Positions 5,644 to 33,026 of a stretch of 36,506 bases of DNA are shown here, piece by piece. Location of the stretch: IMG/VR virus record IMGVR_UViG_2534681651_000007, positions 1 through 36,506 of that record; one strand, 5' to 3'. The notes beneath the pieces are model-generated. The model searched no databases. It was not told the origin of the DNA and worked only from the letters and a program-made list of their open reading frames with translations. Position 1 is the stretch's first letter; each line of letters opens with the position of its first letter. The translations under genes and the position numbers were made by a program. The DNA is from a virus (taxonomy: Duplodnaviria; Heunggongvirae; Uroviricota; Caudoviricetes).

Positions 5644-5802
5644 TTATGGCGATACCAGAGAGCTTTCTGCGTGTACATGCGTCTCTGTAACTTGCTCTCC
5701 TTCACTGTGGTTGCAAGTGACATGAATATCTCCTTCGTTACCGATTAAATCTTTCATCTGACGAATGAATTCTTCGTCTGACCAGTTATCTGTAAAACTC
5801 AT
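5644..5802 (-). CDS. Small hypothetical protein (52 aa, MSFTDNWSDEEFIRQMKDLIGNEGDIHV...)
   Basis: Manually translated ORF whose ATG overlaps the kil stop (ATGA). Confidence 0.4.
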   Translation of the reverse strand: MSFTDNWSDEEFIRQMKDLIGNEGDIHVTCNHSEGEQVTETHVHAESSLVSP

Positions 5803-5951
5803 TTCCTGCGATACCACGGAAGGTTGATAGCTGATTTCATCGCTTTATTTGCTTCAAGCCACATTTTTGAATCACCAATAAATCTGGCTATTACTGCTTT
5901 GTTCTGTGTAGCACGAAGCATCTGGTGATTAATGGCTATTTCATTGCGCAT
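5799..5951 (-). CDS. kil: Kil-like host cell-division inhibitor (50 aa)
   Basis: Manually translated: MRNEIAINHQMLRATQNKAVIARFIGDSKMWLEANKAMK...; the segment QNKAVIARFIGDSKMWLEA resembles recalled lambda Kil (QTKFTIATFIGDEKMFREA); overlaps cIII 3' end as in lambda. Start could instead be the internal Met at 5921. Confidence 0.6.
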   Translation of the reverse strand: MRNEIAINHQMLRATQNKAVIARFIGDSKMWLEANKAMKSAINLPWYRRK

Positions 5952-6070
5952 AACGCCTCCAGTTGTTTCTTTGCTGCTCTGATTAATTGTTTAACTCGGC
6001 GTGATAATTCAGATTCGTGCGGGTAGAAAGCGGACATGACGCCGCTACCCGCGAGCTGAAAGTGCATCAT
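5936..6070 (-). CDS. cIII: CIII-like FtsH (HflB) protease inhibitor (44 aa)
   Basis: MMHFQLAGSGVMSAFYPHESELSRRVKQLIRAAKKQLEAL... parallels recalled lambda CIII (MQYAIAGWPVAGCPSESLLERITRKLRDGWKRLIDIL...); AAGGAG Shine-Dalgarno 6 nt upstream of the ATG at 6070. Confidence 0.7.
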   Translation of the reverse strand: MMHFQLAGSGVMSAFYPHESELSRRVKQLIRAAKKQLEALCAMK

Positions 6071-6153
6071 GGGTAACTCCTTATATTTGATTGCATAACG
6101 AAAATGCCTCTCGTGAAGCATTATTGGTATGCGGTAAAGCCGCGCTCAGGCGG

Positions 6154-6402
6154 CTACTCTATTTCTTCTTCGAATGATTTTATTAGTCGGTCAATAACAT
6201 CATCCGTTTCAATATCATTTCCGTCTGATTGCTTTAATACATCTATTGATTCTGCAGCGGTAAATTCCATCGCTGTGAGAAACTCGACAATTGCACACTC
6301 AACGACATATCGTTCTTCATCTGTACGACATGAGATAAAAGAGCATTTAATTGCTGTTATTACTTTTTGTTTAAGTTCTGCAGGATAATCAGTTTTTATC
6401 AT
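6154..6402 (-). CDS. Acidic 82-aa hypothetical protein (C-terminus ...DGNDIETDDVIDRLIKSFEEEIE)
   Basis: ORF with GGAG Shine-Dalgarno; strongly net-negative composition; sits between cIII and the terminator, a slot that holds ral/ea genes in lambda. Confidence 0.75.
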   Translation of the reverse strand: MIKTDYPAELKQKVITAIKCSFISCRTDEERYVVECAIVEFLTAMEFTAAESIDVLKQSDGNDIETDDVIDRLIKSFEEEIE

Positions 6403-6413
6403 CGTTTACTCCG

Positions 6414-6443
6414 TTAAAAAAACTGCCCTCACATTGGAGGGCA
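6414..6443 (-). terminator. Rho-independent terminator (stem TGCCCTC/GAGGGCA, 6-nt loop, T7 run on the minus strand)
   Basis: Minus strand reads TGCCCTCCAATGTGAGGGCAGTTTTTTT; positionally analogous to lambda tL1. Confidence 0.7.
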
Positions 6444-6586
6444 AAGAAGATTTCCAATAATCAGAACAAGTCGGCTCCTGTTTAGTTACGAGCGACATTG
6501 CTCCGTGTATTCACTCGTTGGAATGAATACACAGTGCTGTATTTATTCTGTTATTTATGCCAAAAGTAAAGGCCGAATATTCGGCT

Positions 6587-6775
6587 TCATTCCTCAAACT
6601 TAATCTCTGCTATTTCCCGGTCACCATCGCAAAACAGGTAAGATTCATGGAACTGGTTTATAAATGAAATTATTCTTTCAATTTTAATTAGCGAATATTT
6701 CTGCTCTAATGGGTTATGCGGCTTAAACGAAGCACAGTCCAGAATCGCAGAATTGTATAAGATCCATTTGTGCAT
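6587..6775 (-). CDS. Possible small protein (62 aa from the ATG at 6775)
   Basis: AT-rich ORF; overlaps the 3' end of the upstream gene by about 50 nt; weak ribosome-binding site. Low confidence. Confidence 0.35.
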   Translation of the reverse strand: MHKWILYNSAILDCASFKPHNPLEQKYSLIKIERIISFINQFHESYLFCDGDREIAEIKFEE

Positions 6776-7580
6776 TTTTACCACCACTAGGTGTTAGTGG
6801 TGCCTCAGATAGTGGAACGCCATATTTAGTAAGCCACAAATGAGGCCACTTCATTTGTATCTCTTTTTCATGCTGACATGCTCTTTCAAAATCAGATGGG
6901 ACGTTATTTTTCATATAAAGCCACAGATCATCATCTCTGTTAGGGCACATCCAGCAAAGCGAGGCAGGTGGTGTAGGAAGACCATAATCCTCGACACATT
7001 GAATTGCCATCTGTTTAGTCATTAGCATTTCAATAAGTGGATAGCGCCTCTGCCACTTGCCAGTTGGGTATTTCGCTCTTCGTTTAGCCTCTTCAATGCT
7101 TATCCCCATCCAACTATCCACTCCTCTTGCTGTAAGATACTTCTCTCCATATCTTTCATTTAAAAATCTCTGAATAACTTCAGTTTTCCACTTTATAGAA
7201 CAAAATGCTGGTTGCTTTCCAGCGCACATTCCTTTTGAATCCCTTCCCTCGTATTCTGTGAAATATCCAGGTAGAGGAACGTCTGGATCAGGCCCATCAA
7301 TGTCGTAGGTAGCAAATCTACTTTTAGGAACAATCAGGTAATCAACACCCATATCTTCACAAATAGGAGCTATATATTTTTTCTGATATTCAAATACATT
7401 ACTTGCCTCACGTTCTGTATCTGACATAACGATAATGTCAGGCTTTGGAAGAACGCCAGCATGTACTAAGCAGATTATTGCGTTACTTTGAGTCCCACCA
7501 CCGGAAGAAATAACATTTAGTCTTTCTGGATTATGCTTGAATTCTCTTCTTGGTATGAATTTACTTGTAAATCCTGGCAT
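6723..7580 (-). CDS. PP-loop / PAPS-reductase-like family protein (285 aa), accessory gene downstream of N
   Basis: N-terminal glycine-rich motif NVISSGGGTQSNAIICL resembles (not canonically) the SGGxDS PP-loop of PAPS reductase/ATP-pyrophosphatase enzymes; several Cys pairs near the C-terminus; AAGGAG Shine-Dalgarno; lower GC than flanks. Family assignment is inference. Confidence 0.5.
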   Translation of the reverse strand: MPGFTSKFIPRREFKHNPERLNVISSGGGTQSNAIICLVHAGVLPKPDIIVMSDTEREASNVFEYQKKYIAPICEDMGVDYLIVPKSRFATYDIDGPDPDVPLPGYFTEYEGRDSKGMCAGKQPAFCSIKWKTEVIQRFLNERYGEKYLTARGVDSWMGISIEEAKRRAKYPTGKWQRRYPLIEMLMTKQMAIQCVEDYGLPTPPASLCWMCPNRDDDLWLYMKNNVPSDFERACQHEKEIQMKWPHLWLTKYGVPLSEAPLTPSGGKNAQMDLIQFCDSGLCFV

Positions 7581-14430: not shown

Positions 14431-14615
14431 ACGCCACAATTCAAACGATACCAGAGCTTCTTATCCAGACACGAGGTAATCAGACCGAAGTGGCGAGGAT
14501 GCTTTCCTGCGCAAGAGGAACAGTGCTCAAGTACAACCGAGACAGCAAAGGCGAGCGTCACGTAATAGTTAACGGCGTCCTAATGGTCAAACAGGGCAAG
14601 AGGGGAAGACGATGA
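14427..14615 (+). CDS. ninH: NinH protein
   Basis: 62-aa ORF ...TIPELLIQTRGNQTEVARMLSCARGTVLKY... resembles recalled lambda NinH. Confidence 0.8.
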   Translation: MNATIQTIPELLIQTRGNQTEVARMLSCARGTVLKYNRDSKGERHVIVNGVLMVKQGKRGRR

Positions 14616-15235
14616 GACTCGAAAGCGTAGCTAAATTTCATTCGCCAAAAAGCCCGATGATGAGCGACTCACCACGGGCCACGGCTTCTGACTCTCTTTC
14701 CGGTACTGATGTGATGGCTGCTATGGGGATGGCGCAATCACAAGCCGGATTCGGAATGGCTGCATTCTGTGGTAAGCATGAACTCAGCCAGAACGACAAA
14801 CAAAAGGCTATCAACTATCTGATGCAATTTGCACACAAGGTATCGGGGAAATACCGTGGCGTTGCAAAGCTTGAAGGAAATACTAAGGCAAAGGTACTGC
14901 AAGTGCTCGCAACATTCGCTTATGCGGATTATTGCCGTAGTGCCGCGACGCCGGGCGCAAGATGCAGAGATTGCCACGGTACAGGCCGTGCGGTTGATAT
15001 AGCAAAAACAGAGCAATGGGGGAGAGTTGTTGAGAAAGAGTGCGGAAGATGCAAAGGTGTCGGCTATTCAAGGATGCCAGCAAGCGCCGCATATCGCGCT
15101 GTAACGATGCTAATCCCAAACCTTACTCAACCCACCTGGTCACGCACTGTTAAGCCGCTGTATGACGCTCTGGTGGTGCAATGCCACAAAGAAGAGTCAA
15201 TCGCAGACAACATTTTGAATGCGGTCACACGTTAG
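14612..15235 (+). CDS. Q: Late-gene antiterminator Q (lambda type)
   Basis: 207-aa ORF MRLESVAKFHSPKSPMMSDSPRATASDSLSGTD... essentially identical to recalled lambda Q; followed by a lambda-type pR'. Confidence 0.95.
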   Translation: MRLESVAKFHSPKSPMMSDSPRATASDSLSGTDVMAAMGMAQSQAGFGMAAFCGKHELSQNDKQKAINYLMQFAHKVSGKYRGVAKLEGNTKAKVLQVLATFAYADYCRSAATPGARCRDCHGTGRAVDIAKTEQWGRVVEKECGRCKGVGYSRMPASAAYRAVTMLIPNLTQPTWSRTVKPLYDALVVQCHKEESIADNILNAVTR

Positions 15236-16491: not shown

Positions 16492-16925
16492 GCAGAATAA
16501 CCGCGATTATCTCCGCTCTGATTATCTGCATCATCGTCTGCCTGTCATGGGCTGTTAATCATTACCGTGATAACGCCATCGCCTACAAAGACCAGCGCGA
16601 TAAAGCCACGTACATCATCGCTGACATGCAGAAGCGTCAACGTGATGTAGCAGAACTTGACGCCAGATACACAAAGGAGCTTGCTGATGCTAACGCGACT
16701 ATCGAAAGTCTCCGTGCTGATGTTTCTGCTGGTCGTAAGCGCCTGCAAGTCGCCGCAACCTGTGCAAAGTCAACGACCGGAGCCAGCAGCATGGGCGATG
16801 GAGAAAGCCCAAGACTTACAGCAGATGCTGAACTCAATTATTACCGTCTCCGAAGTGGAATCGACAGGATAACCGCGCAGGTTAACTACCTGCAGGAGTA
16901 CATCAGGACGCAATGCCTGAAATAA
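16488..16925 (+). CDS. Rz: Rz inner-membrane spanin
   Basis: N-terminal transmembrane helix plus coiled-coil body; ATGA overlap with R stop. Confidence 0.85.
16687..16872 (+). CDS. Rz1: Rz1 outer-membrane lipoprotein spanin, embedded in the +1 frame of Rz
   Basis: [25 protein letters not shown]... with lipobox VSAC and Pro-rich mature region; wholly inside Rz. Confidence 0.8.
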
Positions 16926-16957
16926 TTTTTTTTGCAAATCACAAAGTCAATTTAATG

Positions 16958-16981
16958 AGCCTCGCGATGCGGGGCTTTTTT
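16958..16981 (+). terminator. Rho-independent terminator after the lysis cassette
   Basis: AGCCTCGCGATGCGGGGCTTTTTT read directly. Confidence 0.6.
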
Positions 16982-17128
16982 ATGTCCGCAGTAAACGCGC
17001 TTCACACGCGCGACTTATGAACACAGAACCTTTCAGGATGACCCTTGAGGATGCCGGTTTGGTGATCGGTGCCTTTCTGTGGGCCGGAATCCTGTGTGAC
17101 AAGGTTCATCACTAAAAGGTAATCACTG

Positions 17129-17659
17129 ATGAAGTACCCAACAGTTATTGTCAATGGTGTGTCCGTTCGTGTTGATGAGGATGGACGCTACAACTTAAAC
17201 GATCTCCATGCAGCAGCAGTTGCAAATGGAGAGGCTACAGAGCAACAGCGCCCAAGCCAGTTTTTGCGTAGCGCGCAGATAAAACGCTTCATAAAAGCAC
17301 TGGAGGCCAAAGTGCAAAAAAGCACTTTGGAACAAATTCAATCACTTAAAATAATCAAAGGTGGTGCGGAACCAGGTGTGTGGGGTGTTGAACTTCTGGC
17401 AATCAGATATGCAGCATGGATTAAGCCGGAATTTGAAATCGAAGTTTATGAAGTTTTCAAAACGGTTGTCCGCCTCGGCGTTGGCGCAATGTCCCGTCTG
17501 AATAGAATCGATCACATCATCAATACTGAAACCAAAGCGATAAGCCAGTGCGCAAGCCAAATGGCGAAGTGGGGCGTTGGTGGGCGAAAAAGATTGCTTC
17601 ATGTTGCACGTGAGAGAGCGGCAAATGAAGTGCAAATGTATTTGCCCGGAATGGTGTGA
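17129..17659 (+). CDS. KilA-N domain protein (176 aa)
   Basis: N-terminal region (VIVNGVSVRVDEDGRYNLNDLHAAA...QRPSQFLRSAQIKRFIKALE...) resembles the KilA-N DNA-binding domain as I recall it; family assignment is from memory. Confidence 0.6.
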   Translation: MKYPTVIVNGVSVRVDEDGRYNLNDLHAAAVANGEATEQQRPSQFLRSAQIKRFIKALEAKVQKSTLEQIQSLKIIKGGAEPGVWGVELLAIRYAAWIKPEFEIEVYEVFKTVVRLGVGAMSRLNRIDHIINTETKAISQCASQMAKWGVGGRKRLLHVARERAANEVQMYLPGMV

Positions 17660-17768
17660 TTCTGCTGGTTAATCCGGGCAGCCCTTCAGTGAGGGCTGCA
17701 ATAATGCTTTATTCGTATGAAGACGAAGGGTAATCTGTAGGCTCTGATTATCTAATGGAGGGTTTATG

Positions 17769-17972
17769 ATGGACAATTATTTTAAATCTGGCGATAACCG
17801 AGTATCTGATTCTGAGCACCAGCGTTTAGTGGCTACCAAAGCAGCTCTTGAAATTATCAAGGCCGCCGTATCTGCCCCTACCGATGCGAAAAACGTGTCT
17901 TATGATTTGGAGGAGGCAATAAAATACCTTCCGCGGTTGACTGATGCTATTCAGGAAACGATTGGTAAATAG
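17769..17972 (+). CDS. Small hypothetical protein (67 aa)
   Basis: GGAGGG Shine-Dalgarno upstream of tandem ATGs; followed by a terminator. Confidence 0.6.
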   Translation: MDNYFKSGDNRVSDSEHQRLVATKAALEIIKAAVSAPTDAKNVSYDLEEAIKYLPRLTDAIQETIGK

Positions 17973-18025
17973 CATTTCGTTTTAGTTTTATTATTTCACC
18001 TTAAATATGAGTAAGATTAAGACAA

Positions 18026-18048
18026 AGCTACCTACGAGTAGCTTTTTT
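18026..18048 (+). terminator. Rho-independent terminator (AGCTAC-CTACGA-GTAGCT followed by T6)
   Basis: Read directly. Confidence 0.6.
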
Positions 18049-18183
18049 AATGGCTATAGCATTAGGAACATAATCATGTAAAAACCGGACAAAGAAGCCA
18101 TCGGACGGCGTCTTGTAAAACAGTAATCAAGATATGCAATACTGAAACGCCGCCTGGTATTCTCTGAGATAAAGAAGAATTAA

Positions 18184-18762
18184 TTAAGTATTAGTCATTG
18201 AATGTTTTATGTGCTCGAATAATGTGAGAGCATCATCAGATAATTCACGCCGAGAGATCCAGTCATGCTCATTCAATTGCCATGCAAGGCCTAAAGCTTG
18301 ATTCAATCCTGGATATGCAATTGGTGAGTCATCAGAGTTACTACTTGCGGCTTCCATTTTGGCTAATGGAATTCTTAAACGATTGATCTTACGTTTATAG
18401 ATCTGTATCTCATTTCGCACATGATTCAATGGAGATCCATCATTTTTTGCAAATTGATCTAATGTTCTTACTAGTTCATACATTCCTAAAACCCAGAGAT
18501 AGGAAGAAGTGATATGATCACTTAAGTCGTGCATTGGGTTTTTTAGATATCCAGTCTTGATGAGTTCAGCATCATCATTAACTAGGCGAGAATCTAGTAC
18601 ACCTAGATGTTGAAGTGTTATTGTCGACCATTGATTGTGGGCCGTAATTGCATGGGAACAGTCAACCCACCTCTTGTTTCTGTCTGCATCAAATAATCCA
18701 GCAATGTAAGCTCTAAGCCTACCATTGTGGGGCTTCTTTAATTCCTCAGACAAATTATCCAT
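18184..18762 (-). CDS. Reverse-strand hypothetical protein (192 aa from the ATG at 18762; the track shows 201 aa from a GTG at 18789) in a low-GC island between lysis and packaging genes
   Basis: AGGAG Shine-Dalgarno 5 nt upstream of the ATG at 18762; AT-rich; opposite orientation to all neighbours. P22 carries an unnamed ORF of about this size in the same slot, if I recall correctly. Confidence 0.75.
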   Translation of the reverse strand: MDNLSEELKKPHNGRLRAYIAGLFDADRNKRWVDCSHAITAHNQWSTITLQHLGVLDSRLVNDDAELIKTGYLKNPMHDLSDHITSSYLWVLGMYELVRTLDQFAKNDGSPLNHVRNEIQIYKRKINRLRIPLAKMEAASSNSDDSPIAYPGLNQALGLAWQLNEHDWISRRELSDDALTLFEHIKHSMTNT

Positions 18763-18782
18763 TTGATCTCCTAGGGTACTAT

Positions 18783-19310
18783 ATGGCACTCACCGACAAA
18801 CAAGAGATGTTCTGTCGCGAGTACCTCATCGATTTAAACGCCACACAGGCGGCTATTCGTGCGGGGTACAGCGCAAAGACAGCTAACCGTACCGCATCCG
18901 AAAACCTGTCAAAACCTGACATCAAGTTAAGAATCGCCGAACTGAAAGCGCAACGCAATGATCTTGTTGGTATTAATGCAGAATATGTACTTAATCGCCT
19001 TCTTGAAATCGACCAGATGGATGTGCTCGACATTCTCCTGCAAAACGGTGAGTTAAAGCCCATTAAAGACTGGCCTAAGGTATGGCGCACAACGCTATCA
19101 GGAATGGATGTTGTGGAGATGGTATCCGCAGATAGTGCCGCACTTCTGAAGAAAATCAAATGGCCTGATAAGGTTAAAAACCTCGAACTTCTTGGTAAGC
19201 ATGTTTCTGTTCAGGCATTTAAAGAACAATCTTCTCACGAGCTAACCGGCAAAGACGGCGGCGCAATCCAGATTGAAACATCACCGATGAGCACTCTATT
19301 CGGAAAATGA
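18783..19310 (+). CDS. Terminase small subunit
   Basis: N-terminus MALTDKQEMFCREYLIDLNATQAAIRAGYSAKTA is the characteristic small-terminase HTH signature; immediately precedes the large subunit. Confidence 0.88.
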   Translation: MALTDKQEMFCREYLIDLNATQAAIRAGYSAKTANRTASENLSKPDIKLRIAELKAQRNDLVGINAEYVLNRLLEIDQMDVLDILLQNGELKPIKDWPKVWRTTLSGMDVVEMVSADSAALLKKIKWPDKVKNLELLGKHVSVQAFKEQSSHELTGKDGGAIQIETSPMSTLFGK

Positions 19311-20722
19311 CCTCGATTAATTCTATCTTTGAACCGTTCATTGAGGCGCATCGCTACAAAGTCGCCAAAGGCGGTCGAGGTAGCGGTAAGTCATGGGCAA
19401 TTGCGAGGCTGCTTGTTGAAGCGGCGCGTCGGCAGCCTGTGCGCATACTCTGCGCTCGTGAACTGCAAAACAGTATCAGCGATTCGGTAATCCGGCTGCT
19501 TGAAGATACCATTGAGCGTGAAGGGTATTCGGCTGAGTTTGAAATTCAGCGTTCAATGATCCGTCATCTCGGAACGAATGCTGAATTCATGTTCTACGGC
19601 ATCAAAAACAACCCGACGAAGATTAAATCGCTCGAAGGTATTGATATCTGCTGGGTGGAGGAAGCGGAAGCGGTAACGAAGGAATCATGGGATATTCTGA
19701 TACCAACCATCCGCAAGCCGTTTTCCGAAATATGGGTGAGCTTCAACCCTAAGAACATCCTCGACGATACCTATCAGCGATTCGTTGTAAATCCTCCCGA
19801 TGATATTTGTCTGCTGACGGTGAACTACACCGACAACCCGCACTTTCCTGAAGTTCTCCGTCTGGAGATGGAAGAGTGCAAACGCAGAAATCCGACACTG
19901 TATCGCCACATCTGGCTAGGTGAGCCGGTAAGCGCAAGTGATATGGCAATCATCAAACGTGAATGGCTTGAAGCCGCAACCGATGCGCACAAGAAACTTG
20001 GATGGAAAGCGAAAGGCGCTGTTGTCTCTGCGCATGACCCATCAGATACAGGGCCAGATGCTAAAGGTTATGCATCGCGTCACGGTTCGGTAGTTAAGCG
20101 CATTGCCGAAGGTCTGCTGATGGACATCAACGAGGGTGCTGACTGGGCTACTTCGCTGGCGATTGAAGACGGCGCTGACCATTACCTGTGGGATGGTGAT
20201 GGTGTTGGTGCCGGGCTACGCAGACAGACAACGGAAGCGTTCTCCGGCAAGAAAATCACCGCCACGATGTTCAAAGGCAGCGAATCGCCATTCGATGAAG
20301 ATGCACCGTATCAAGCCGGAGCATGGGCTGATGAAGTCGTACAGGGTGACAACGTTCGCACTATTGGCGATGTGTTCCGCAATAAGCGAGCGCAATTCTA
20401 TTACGCGCTGGCTGACAGGCTGTATCTGACATATCGGGCGGTTGTCTACGGTGAGTATGCAGACCCCGACGACATGCTGAGTTTCGACAAAGAAGCGATA
20501 GGCGAGAAGATGCTGGAGAAGCTGTTTGCAGAACTGACGCAGATTCAGCGCAAATTCAATAACAACGGGAAGCTGGAGCTTATGACTAAGGTCGAAATGA
20601 AGCAGAAGCTCGGGATCCCATCTCCTAACCTGGCTGATGCGTTGATGATGTGTATGCATTGCCCGGAGTCGGCTGCGCAACCCGACTATTCCAGTTACTC
20701 AATTCCTTGTGGTGTAGGTTGA
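19307..20722 (+). CDS. Terminase large subunit
   Basis: 471 aa with Walker A (GGRGSGKS) near the N-terminus and a C-terminal nuclease-like region; overlapping start with the small subunit. Confidence 0.92.
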   Translation: MTSINSIFEPFIEAHRYKVAKGGRGSGKSWAIARLLVEAARRQPVRILCARELQNSISDSVIRLLEDTIEREGYSAEFEIQRSMIRHLGTNAEFMFYGIKNNPTKIKSLEGIDICWVEEAEAVTKESWDILIPTIRKPFSEIWVSFNPKNILDDTYQRFVVNPPDDICLLTVNYTDNPHFPEVLRLEMEECKRRNPTLYRHIWLGEPVSASDMAIIKREWLEAATDAHKKLGWKAKGAVVSAHDPSDTGPDAKGYASRHGSVVKRIAEGLLMDINEGADWATSLAIEDGADHYLWDGDGVGAGLRRQTTEAFSGKKITATMFKGSESPFDEDAPYQAGAWADEVVQGDNVRTIGDVFRNKRAQFYYALADRLYLTYRAVVYGEYADPDDMLSFDKEAIGEKMLEKLFAELTQIQRKFNNNGKLELMTKVEMKQKLGIPSPNLADALMMCMHCPESAAQPDYSSYSIPCGVG

Positions 20723-32406: not shown

Positions 32407-32892
32407 CTATCTGATATTACTGCTACTGTTGCATGTTACCGTGTTTCCAAATCCTGAATTGCAGTTTGTATATGTGTCAACGCGTGTTGGGTAAGGTTGA
32501 GTTATAACAGGCTGGCGCGCTTTTTGCTCGATCGCTTGCATTGTGTTTACAGCCTGATAATTCAATAAAGCCTGCTGGAATGCTTGGCTTTGTGCTATTT
32601 GTTGTGCTTGTTCTTGGCTTTGTAATTGAACATAAAGATTCTGAAGCTCAAGTCTTGCCTGTGCGTCACTTATCTTGCCTTCATCGACACCTTGCCCGAG
32701 CATCTTCGCAGCAAGGACATACAGCTTAGGGGTTGGTGCTGATGCCATGCGTGAGTCGTTCTTCACACTGGCATCAAGGCAATTCGCCATGTCGCTAAGT
32801 CTTGGATAACGTTGCTCGCAACTTGCCTGATAGTCGCTAACCTTTGCACACCCTGCCAGCAGAAGCGGGATAATTAACAGTGATTTTTTCAT
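32407..32892 (-). CDS. Lipoprotein (161 aa from the ATG at 32892; signal MKKSLLIIPLLLAGC), Gln-rich mature domain
   Basis: Lipobox LAGC after a hydrophobic signal; AAGGAGAG Shine-Dalgarno; reverse-oriented in the slot where P22 has sieA. Confidence 0.8.
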   Translation of the reverse strand: MKKSLLIIPLLLAGCAKVSDYQASCEQRYPRLSDMANCLDASVKNDSRMASAPTPKLYVLAAKMLGQGVDEGKISDAQARLELQNLYVQLQSQEQAQQIAQSQAFQQALLNYQAVNTMQAIEQKARQPVITQPYPTRVDTYTNCNSGFGNTVTCNSSSNIR

Positions 32893-33026
32893 ATGATTAA
32901 CTCTCCTTATCTTTGCCATCATGGCACTGTTGGGTGTAAATGAGTTATTAACTCAACTGACAATATCTTCACGGAAATACTTTTTATTATTAAGATCTTT
33001 CTGATTCTAACAAAACGGAAAGTAAT

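Follow-up and report, generated by a model that had tools for sequence, protein, structure and literature searches.

Classical lambdoid morons, such as HK97 gp15 and lambda bor/lom, are extra inserted genes, and the canonical definition of a moron includes a promoter of its own. Here we describe a reverse-strand gene of 192 amino acids (aa) directly upstream of the gene for the small terminase subunit (terS) in IMG/VR virus record IMGVR_UViG_2534681651_000007. We refer to the whole stretch of DNA analysed, 36,506 nucleotides (nt) long, as the window. The closest described system is that of the Tai proteins, which keep infecting phages from assembling their tails (He et al. 2024, PMC11364771, a paper that also cites HK97 gp15). 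The tai genes of phages are found mostly "upstream of the packaging module", and in phi80 the gene taiEcA is divergent from the Q-dependent late operon, an arrangement described as a "noncontiguous operon"; the lysogen contains TaiEcA, in a lower amount when Q is supplied (PMC11364771). The window gene compares closely with phi80 taiEcA/atiEcA in its placement: in both, a single gene of about 200 aa follows the lysis genes and a gene of the Rha/KilA-N type, precedes the packaging genes, and runs opposite to the late operon. The order of the phi80 map (lysis genes, terminator, rha, reverse gene, small forward gene, packaging) is as in the window. We find that the reverse gene of the window is exchangeable cargo in a hotspot directly upstream of the terS of a CUS-3/HK620-like (P22-like) prophage.

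A swap slot beside terS

The window is a P22-like E. coli prophage. Its nearest relatives are Kapi1, CUS-3 and HK620, which are 96-97% identical to it across roughly half of the first 25 kilobases (kb). For the left edge of the slot, we compared positions 17660-18800 by megablast with 5,426 complete E. coli genomes. The matches cover the left part only, and they end at 18111 in the T28R prophage and at about 18055 in the EC931 prophage. On the right, similarity comes back at terS; relative to T28R, blastn places the cassette at 18112-18765, with homology effectively from the terS ATG. Between these two flanks, the T28R and EC931 prophages carry a different reverse-strand gene. The cassettes join terS at its ATG, and every one of them comes with a separate leader of 19-27 nt that includes a Shine-Dalgarno sequence (SD). 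An SD or intergenic region common to the cassettes, hinted at by the blastn end at 18766, is ruled out, as the leaders differ on inspection. The features of the region, in window coordinates and including open reading frames (ORFs), are the following.

14612-15235: Q gene, upstream of the holin, lysozyme and Rz genes
up to 16925: Rz lysis gene, preceded by holin and lysozyme
16957-16985, plus strand: intrinsic terminator behind Rz, with a 9-bp GC-rich stem and U6
17129-17659, plus strand: KilA-N domain protein, 176 aa (Pfam PF04383, phrog_129)
17678-17699, plus strand: GC-rich hairpin just past the KilA-N stop (-20.9 kcal/mol, z -2.6), with no clean U-tract
17766-17972, plus strand: 68-aa ORF (67 aa from the second Met), phrog_5901 (E 3.6e-26), function unknown
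18025-18049, plus strand: AU-rich hairpin with U6 behind the 68-aa ORF, weakly terminator-like (z only -1.2)
about 18090-18166, minus strand: long hairpin 3' of the reverse gene, candidate terminator (z -2.5), with an interrupted U-tract
18112-18782: variable cassette, swapped for unrelated sequence in prophages that have both flanks in common (both-flank comparison)
18184-18762, minus strand: reverse gene, 192 aa, 22 kDa, soluble, of an uncharacterised partnerless family
18768-18772, minus strand: SD of the reverse gene, AGGAG, 5 nt before the ATG at 18762, read from the sequence
18783-19310, plus strand: terS, small terminase subunit (Terminase_2, E 1e-39), followed by terL and portal

The distal part of the hairpin at 18090-18166, up to 18111, is common to the window and the T28R prophage.

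At least 80% of the window terS is present in 215 E. coli genomes. To describe the occupancy of the slot, we opened 10 other E. coli prophages with a terS at least 93% identical to that of the window. In all 10, a reverse-strand gene abuts terS. Together with the window (n = 11), they hold seven kinds of occupant that have no pairwise similarity in an all-against-all BLASTP comparison, with a G+C content (GC) between 0.36 and 0.44. The mark of a variable prophage hotspot, namely the same flanks around unrelated inserts in many genomes, is found here. The original prediction, made from the window sequence alone, had taken this reverse, compositionally distinct gene for typical lysogen-expressed cargo (exclusion, abortive infection or virulence); that it behaves as exchangeable cargo is supported by the reverse low-GC slot genes in 10/10 relatives, one of them a TaiEcA homologue. 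Outside this terS type the slot changes. Relatives of terS at 77-83% identity include empty sites; Cronobacter phage ES2, a distant terS relative, has yet another reverse gene in the slot, annotated as a 'transcriptional regulator'; and in HK620, Kapi1 and phiKp_30, which have other terS types, the gap holds forward genes only. A reverse prophage cargo gene upstream of packaging genes is a kind of arrangement already known, and He et al. noted Tai genes thereabouts. What is new is that the slot is delimited for this type of terS, and that a set of unrelated genes is shown to occupy it.

Two of the seven kinds of occupant have any defence evidence. One is the EC931 occupant WP_001067622 (174 aa; L002:4708-5232, minus strand), for which RefSeq gives the label 'hypothetical protein' and no defence annotation. 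This protein is similar to phi80 orf63/TaiEcA (30% identity over 160 aa, E 9e-23), and it has the Tai R-N-x3-H motif. Functional Tai proteins are 22-43% identical to one another (PMC11364771), a range that includes the 30% identity between WP_001067622 and TaiEcA. The other is WP_001544378 (301 aa), which has an 81-aa partner, in E. coli ST3, where the slot region is at L022:1332-2479 on the minus strand. Its entry in Table S10 of the DefensePredictor study reads "Predicted novel defense gene", with a mean log-odds of 6.76 (PMC13092281). The occupants other than these two have no match in Pfam or PADLOC. That includes the commonest one, WP_000762846 (182 aa; L001:4491-5039, minus strand, also in L026-L029), which is present as well in the E. 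coli B derivative B-DidR. By eye, the sequence of WP_000762846 contains YRG...WTT...ENEF, recalling the R-S-E motif of ADP-ribosyltransferases. In sum, the slot houses Tai, which is a validated defence family, one gene that a machine predicts to serve defence, and no fewer than five other occupants, all uncharacterised. Prophage hotspots are productive sources of new immune systems, and this slot is one such hotspot in P22-like/lambdoid E. coli prophages.

A separate observation concerns terS itself. The best match of the window terS among deposited phage genomes is that of Cronobacter phage ES2, at 77.5%, and none is close. The window terL and portal genes are 96-97% identical to those of Kapi1 and CUS-3. 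A terS without a close phage match, but with terL and portal near Kapi1 and CUS-3, implies a mosaic joint at the terS/terL boundary.

The reverse gene and its protein family

The reverse gene is a real gene, because it belongs to a family of many homologues, its ratio of nonsynonymous to synonymous substitution rates (dN/dS) is 0.24, and its product has a confident AlphaFold2 model. The reverse ORF can be read as 18184-18789 (201 aa, starting with GTG) or as 18184-18762 (192 aa, starting with ATG). We take the 192-aa form as the real product, because AGGAG is found 5 nt before its ATG and every enterobacterial homologue has 192 aa. The gene has a GC of 38.3% and a GC at third codon positions (GC3) of 31%, compared to a GC of 47.1% for the window and a GC3 of 42-55% for the neighbouring genes. 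The lowest-GC stretch of 579 nt in the window begins at 17941, and just 3.3% of such stretches are as low as the reverse gene. The dN/dS value is relative to the Klebsiella homologue and, judging from this pair of sequences, the gene is under purifying selection. Most of what had been said about this gene stands: it is AT-rich, oppositely oriented and has a good SD, its 5' end abuts the start of terS (20 nt separate the two ATGs), and no motif is recognisable in Pfam, PHROGs, PADLOC, NCBIfam or the Protein Data Bank (PDB). Of the two lengths proposed, 192 or 201 aa, the first is favoured. The structure prediction and remote-homology search suggested as a check, which we have run, give a confident model, and no informative neighbour or family match among the libraries searched.

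Used as a single sequence, the 192-aa protein has no match in Pfam, PHROGs, NCBIfam or PDB sequences, and Pfam searches with all 38 aligned homologues produce scattered noise only. The family is large all the same: a single-sequence search collects 95 clusters at 90% identity, and a profile search collects 887 representatives at 50% identity. The best 150 of these 887 representatives range from 108 to 278 aa, and each one is a single-stretch match to the profile. The only searchable accession close to the 192-aa protein is WP_218072676, which is 98% identical to it. Neither this accession nor the occupants in T28R, EC931, A11, LR-72 and MFDS turned up in the part of the DefensePredictor tables that we searched, where an absence carries no information. 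The recognition of this occupant as a member of a large, unannotated and partnerless family is also new.

Invariant residues in the family include R28, W32, D57, D64, S87, W90, Y95, E96 and R99, and further along R128, R130, K135, D145, P151, W161, R171 and S175. The conserved motifs are SYLWVLGxYELVRT, RLRIPLAKxE, (T)DSPIAYP and RRELSD. Histidine appears in none of the 21 invariant columns of the family alignment. The conserved R-x4-6-H catalytic motif of HEPN toxins and abortive-infection proteins is thus missing. The single PDB match of the profile, a weak one to a plant terpene synthase (E 0.01, motif RDRxxxxYFWxLG), we judge to be chance, because a protein of this size is too short for such a fold and the alignment leaves out the DDxxD region. 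The AlphaFold2 model has a predicted local distance difference test score (pLDDT) of 88.5 and a predicted template modelling score (pTM) of 0.83. It consists of a helical bundle, a conserved low-confidence loop (approximately residues 128-151), a three-stranded sheet and a C-terminal helix. The 22-kDa protein has an isoelectric point of 6.4, is hydrophilic, and has no membrane segment and no signal peptide. With its clustered invariant Arg, Lys, Asp and Glu residues and its conserved flexible loop, the protein may have an enzyme site, or a site that binds a ligand or partner, more readily than it would form a scaffold.

One annotated family comes near. JGI names four family members 'DUF2461 family', and two members give collinear weak matches to TIGR02453 (TIGR02453/DUF2461) in the C-terminal half (E 0.0023, 17.7 bits; E 0.02, 14.6 bits). 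The TIGR02453 cutoff of 105.4 bits is far above the 14.6-17.7 bits of the family, and the window protein itself matches no NCBIfam model. The Pfam DUF2461 model matches neither the window protein nor 43 other family members. These matches hint at a very distant tie of the family to DUF2461, which is itself uncharacterised and gives no functional lead.

The exact protein is present in E. coli drafts, and over 200 E. coli and E. albertii contigs carry near-identical copies. In Klebsiella lambdoid prophages, the family gene lies between the lysis genes and the terminase, antisense. There (L009-L013), the first ~250 nt of the window terS accompanies the family gene as a remnant; it is truncated (L009:5727-5980, 67 codons, 87% identical), and the functional terS is a different gene. 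The remnant may be a promoter carrier or a transfer scar. In one Klebsiella prophage, we also observe an Acb2/Tad1-hairpin gene (an anti-CBASS/Thoeris sponge; L011:5114-5407, minus strand) that adjoins the family gene and is oriented with the late operon. All six distinct loci examined in IMG/VR have the family gene antisense to the neighbouring phage genes. Other contexts include a prophage island of Aeromonas hydrophila, where TIR, HNH and KAP NTPase genes are accompanied by catalase, superoxide dismutase and ankyrin genes; an Acinetobacter prophage, with the family gene at the integrase end; and a Zymomonas plasmid, with the family gene beside RelE/ParE. In the filamentous (inovirus-like) prophage of Vibrio sp. 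T9, the family gene (L014:7988-8545, plus strand) is at the end, after Zot and secretin, and directly precedes an ADP-ribosyltransferase exotoxin-like gene (PF01129/PF03496). The family is absent from the lytic phage genomes searched. A motif scan with one genome per species (~185,000) finds it in 57 species, spanning Cyanobacteria, Verrucomicrobia, Nitrospira, Chloroflexi, Acidobacteria, Bacteroidota, candidate-phyla-radiation bacteria and two archaea. Clustering the neighbouring ORFs within 3 kb in 64 loci reveals no recurrent partner. As a subject of study, the family of this occupant stands out for its 887 unannotated clusters, ranging from Enterobacteria to archaea, and for a confident model without an informative neighbour.

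The forward genes and other parts of the window

Behind the lysis terminator (16957-16985) the window has, as had been described, a KilA-N gene and a small ORF (17766-17972). The KilA-N protein matches PF04383 over residues 9-113 with 64.7 bits (cutoff 23.8, E 7.8e-18) and phrog_129 with an E-value of 2e-60, and its gene has 92% nucleotide identity to Salmonella phages ST104, SE1 and MG40. KilA-N/Rha genes are found at the same place and in the same orientation in HK620 (hkbK), phi80 (rha), ST104 (orf45), SE1, MG40 and many E. coli prophages. Compared with the accessory genes of this type 3' of the lysis cassette (HK620 hkbK, phi80 rha, ST104 orf45), the 176-aa protein of the window matches in domain, position and orientation, and nothing notable differs.

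The 67-aa ORF said to have its own terminator is present as 68 aa (or 67), and the terminator amounts to a weak hairpin with z -1.2. Three different reverse genes (in the window, T28R and EC931) have this ORF upstream of them at 95-100% identity, and it is missing from other contexts of the 192-aa gene (Klebsiella, Aeromonas and others). We considered it as a specific partner of the reverse gene, which is ruled out because it accompanies three different cargo genes and is missing elsewhere, and as a homologue of AtiEcA, which is ruled out by comparison. The GC of the KilA-N gene (0.465) and of the 68-aa ORF (0.435) are near background, and both genes point with the late operon. The proposal of a three-gene 'moron island' is not supported: the two forward genes have near-background GC and are aligned with the late operon, KilA-N/Rha genes fill this position in many relatives, and the 68-aa ORF accompanies three different reverse genes. 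Both forward genes are ordinary accessory genes of the late operon in their own right, with the 68-aa ORF belonging to the KilA-N module. A search of window positions 16800-19400 against Rfam yields sub-threshold noise only.

Two more ORFs of the window deserve mention. A 285-aa ORF (6723-7580, minus strand) lies on the leftward strand, downstream of an N-like gene and near the cI repressor gene, where GC drops for a second time in the window (to 0.37-0.40, approximately at 5800-7200). It has no Pfam match and a weak PADLOC match to SspD (E 3e-7), and is possibly another cargo or defence slot. A 171-aa ORF (32407-32922, minus strand) separates the genes for the ejection proteins from that for the tailspike (33861 onward), at the position of the P22 immI/sieA region, and has no match in Pfam or PADLOC.

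Function of the cargo and comparison with known systems

The explanation we prefer, tentatively and at a little below an even chance, is that the reverse gene is hotspot cargo expressed in the lysogen, probably interfering with other phages, a reading built from sequence and its genomic context. That the cargo is made in the lysogen is more likely than this reading as a whole, and that it serves defence specifically is less likely. Under this reading, the reverse gene would have independent transcription running against the late operon that depends on Q, and the protein would be made in the lysogen. After induction, convergent late transcription would lower its product, as reported for phi80 taiEcA. 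The benefit would most probably be interference with other infecting phages, and the protein would act alone, soluble and cytoplasmic, by means of its flexible loop and of the invariant Arg, Lys, Asp and Glu residues that its helical bundle carries. The reverse gene is a good candidate for a new single-protein phage defence.

Several results weigh against this reading. No family of PADLOC-DB 2.0.0 (2023) is matched by the 192-aa protein at E<=1, and fold searches with the model return generic helical bundles only, with no informative neighbour. The protein is not a Tai: BLASTP reports nothing, and the hhalign probability is 1% relative to TaiEcA and 0.16% relative to a profile of 11 Tai sequences, while the positive control for this test, the EC931 occupant, finds TaiEcA with an E-value of 9e-23. 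The Tai R-N-x3-H motif (R95, N96 and H100, invariant in the Tai alignment) is also missing from the window family. No convincing sigma-70-like promoter is found on the minus strand in the 530 nt upstream (terS coding sequence) at 7 loci, with a tool scan and two relaxed scans, although a consensus scan could miss a promoter that is weak or atypical. Of the distant homologues examined, about half are solo among housekeeping genes (Mfd/IspDF, NAD synthase, biotin carboxylase) with no signs of mobile elements, and in Udaeobacter-like genomes the neighbourhood is syntenic, as if vertically inherited. From these chromosomal, apparently vertical copies in soil Verrucomicrobia it follows that the ancestral role of the family may be cellular and unrelated to phages. 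The catalase, superoxide dismutase and ankyrin genes of the Aeromonas island suggest stress or virulence cargo.

As for the promoter, the 20-nt gap between the reverse gene and terS contains just the SD of the reverse gene, and any promoter of the reverse gene must lie within the terS coding sequence. A perfect TTGACA ~130 nt upstream of the reverse gene has, by eye, no usable -10. The original prediction of divergent promoters sharing a very short region is unsupported on the same results (a gap with an SD only, and no sigma-70-like site in 530 nt at 7 loci); 20 nt is too little for such promoters, and terS, as part of the late operon driven through Q, does not require a separate one.

The alternative that survives best, although we consider it fairly improbable, is that the gene is lysogenic-conversion cargo for host physiology (stress tolerance, metabolism or virulence) rather than for defence, the prophage merely carrying a useful bacterial gene. 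The distant members that are solo among housekeeping genes, the synteny kept in Verrucomicrobia, the neighbours in the Aeromonas island and the absence of any matched defence model all speak for it. It has to contend with the Tai homologue and the predicted defence gene that fill the slot in sister prophages, and with a patchy spread (57 of ~185,000 species) and a repeated antisense placement in late operons, both of which conflict genes typically show. In particular, a virulence factor that is secreted or sits at the surface would be at odds with a protein that has no signal peptide or membrane segment.

A shade less probable than host-physiology cargo is a bolder form of the defence reading. 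In it, the 192-aa protein would found a new anti-phage system made of one protein, distinct in fold and in chemistry, and the slot upstream of terS would be a dedicated immunity socket, where any inserted cassette is driven by an antisense promoter in the first ~250 nt of the terS coding sequence and is shut off by late transcription. If that were true, the terS fragment would have been carried into Klebsiella lambdoid prophages because it holds the antisense promoter.

We regard as unlikely that the gene is a toxin-like or addiction element (an orphan toxin or a silent abortive-infection effector) that mainly stabilises the prophage or kills the cell. A single small, highly conserved gene with enzyme-like invariant charged residues would suit such an element, as would the ADP-ribosyltransferase gene that adjoins the Vibrio copy and the RelE/ParE that adjoins the Zymomonas copy. 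No conserved antitoxin-like partner appears in the 64 loci, however, no toxin family is matched by sequence or by fold, and the chromosomal copies are stable in some lineages. Slightly more doubtful again is a transcriptionally silent hitch-hiker, that is, AT-rich foreign DNA kept off (for instance by H-NS) and currently functionless here. The very low GC of the reverse gene and the lack of a promoter-like site upstream agree with it; the intact ORF, the strong SD, the dN/dS of 0.24 between the E. coli and Klebsiella copies and the near-identical copies in more than 200 E. coli and E. albertii contigs do not. Least probable of all is a lytic-cycle helper of the phage itself (an anti-defence, packaging or regulatory accessory) on the other strand, because its adjoining terS, the Acb2/Tad1-like neighbour in one Klebsiella prophage and the 'transcriptional regulator' annotation in Cronobacter phage ES2 are outweighed by slot occupants so mutually unrelated that their function is not tied to packaging, by an orientation antisense to the late transcript, by the absence of the family from virulent phage genomes and by the many homologues in non-phage chromosomal contexts.

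Returning to lysogen-expressed cargo that probably interferes with other phages, the known systems place the reverse gene as follows. With classical morons it has in common a deviant composition, a location between genes that are adjacent in relatives, and a terminator-like hairpin behind it; it differs from them in having no recognisable promoter, in being antisense within the late operon, and in starting 20 nt from terS. Of the features expected of a moron, then, we find the deviant composition and the replacement or absence in collinear relatives, and we do not find a promoter of its own. The hotspot system described in 2022 (PMC9122126) likewise has a fixed position, where unrelated and mostly small systems are exchanged between conserved phage genes. 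The slot described here is in another phage group and at another position, is tied to one terS type, and has defence evidence for 2/7 kinds of occupant. With respect to Tai, the window gene has the same placement, being reversed within the late operon and preceding the packaging genes, and a Tai homologue sits in exactly this slot in EC931. The window prophage is a short-tailed P22-like virus, unlike the carrier of phi80 taiEcA. With its cargo gene opposed to the late operon and only 20 nt away from terS, the arrangement can also serve as a second example on which to test the 'noncontiguous operon' as a means of linking immunity to the life cycle of the phage.

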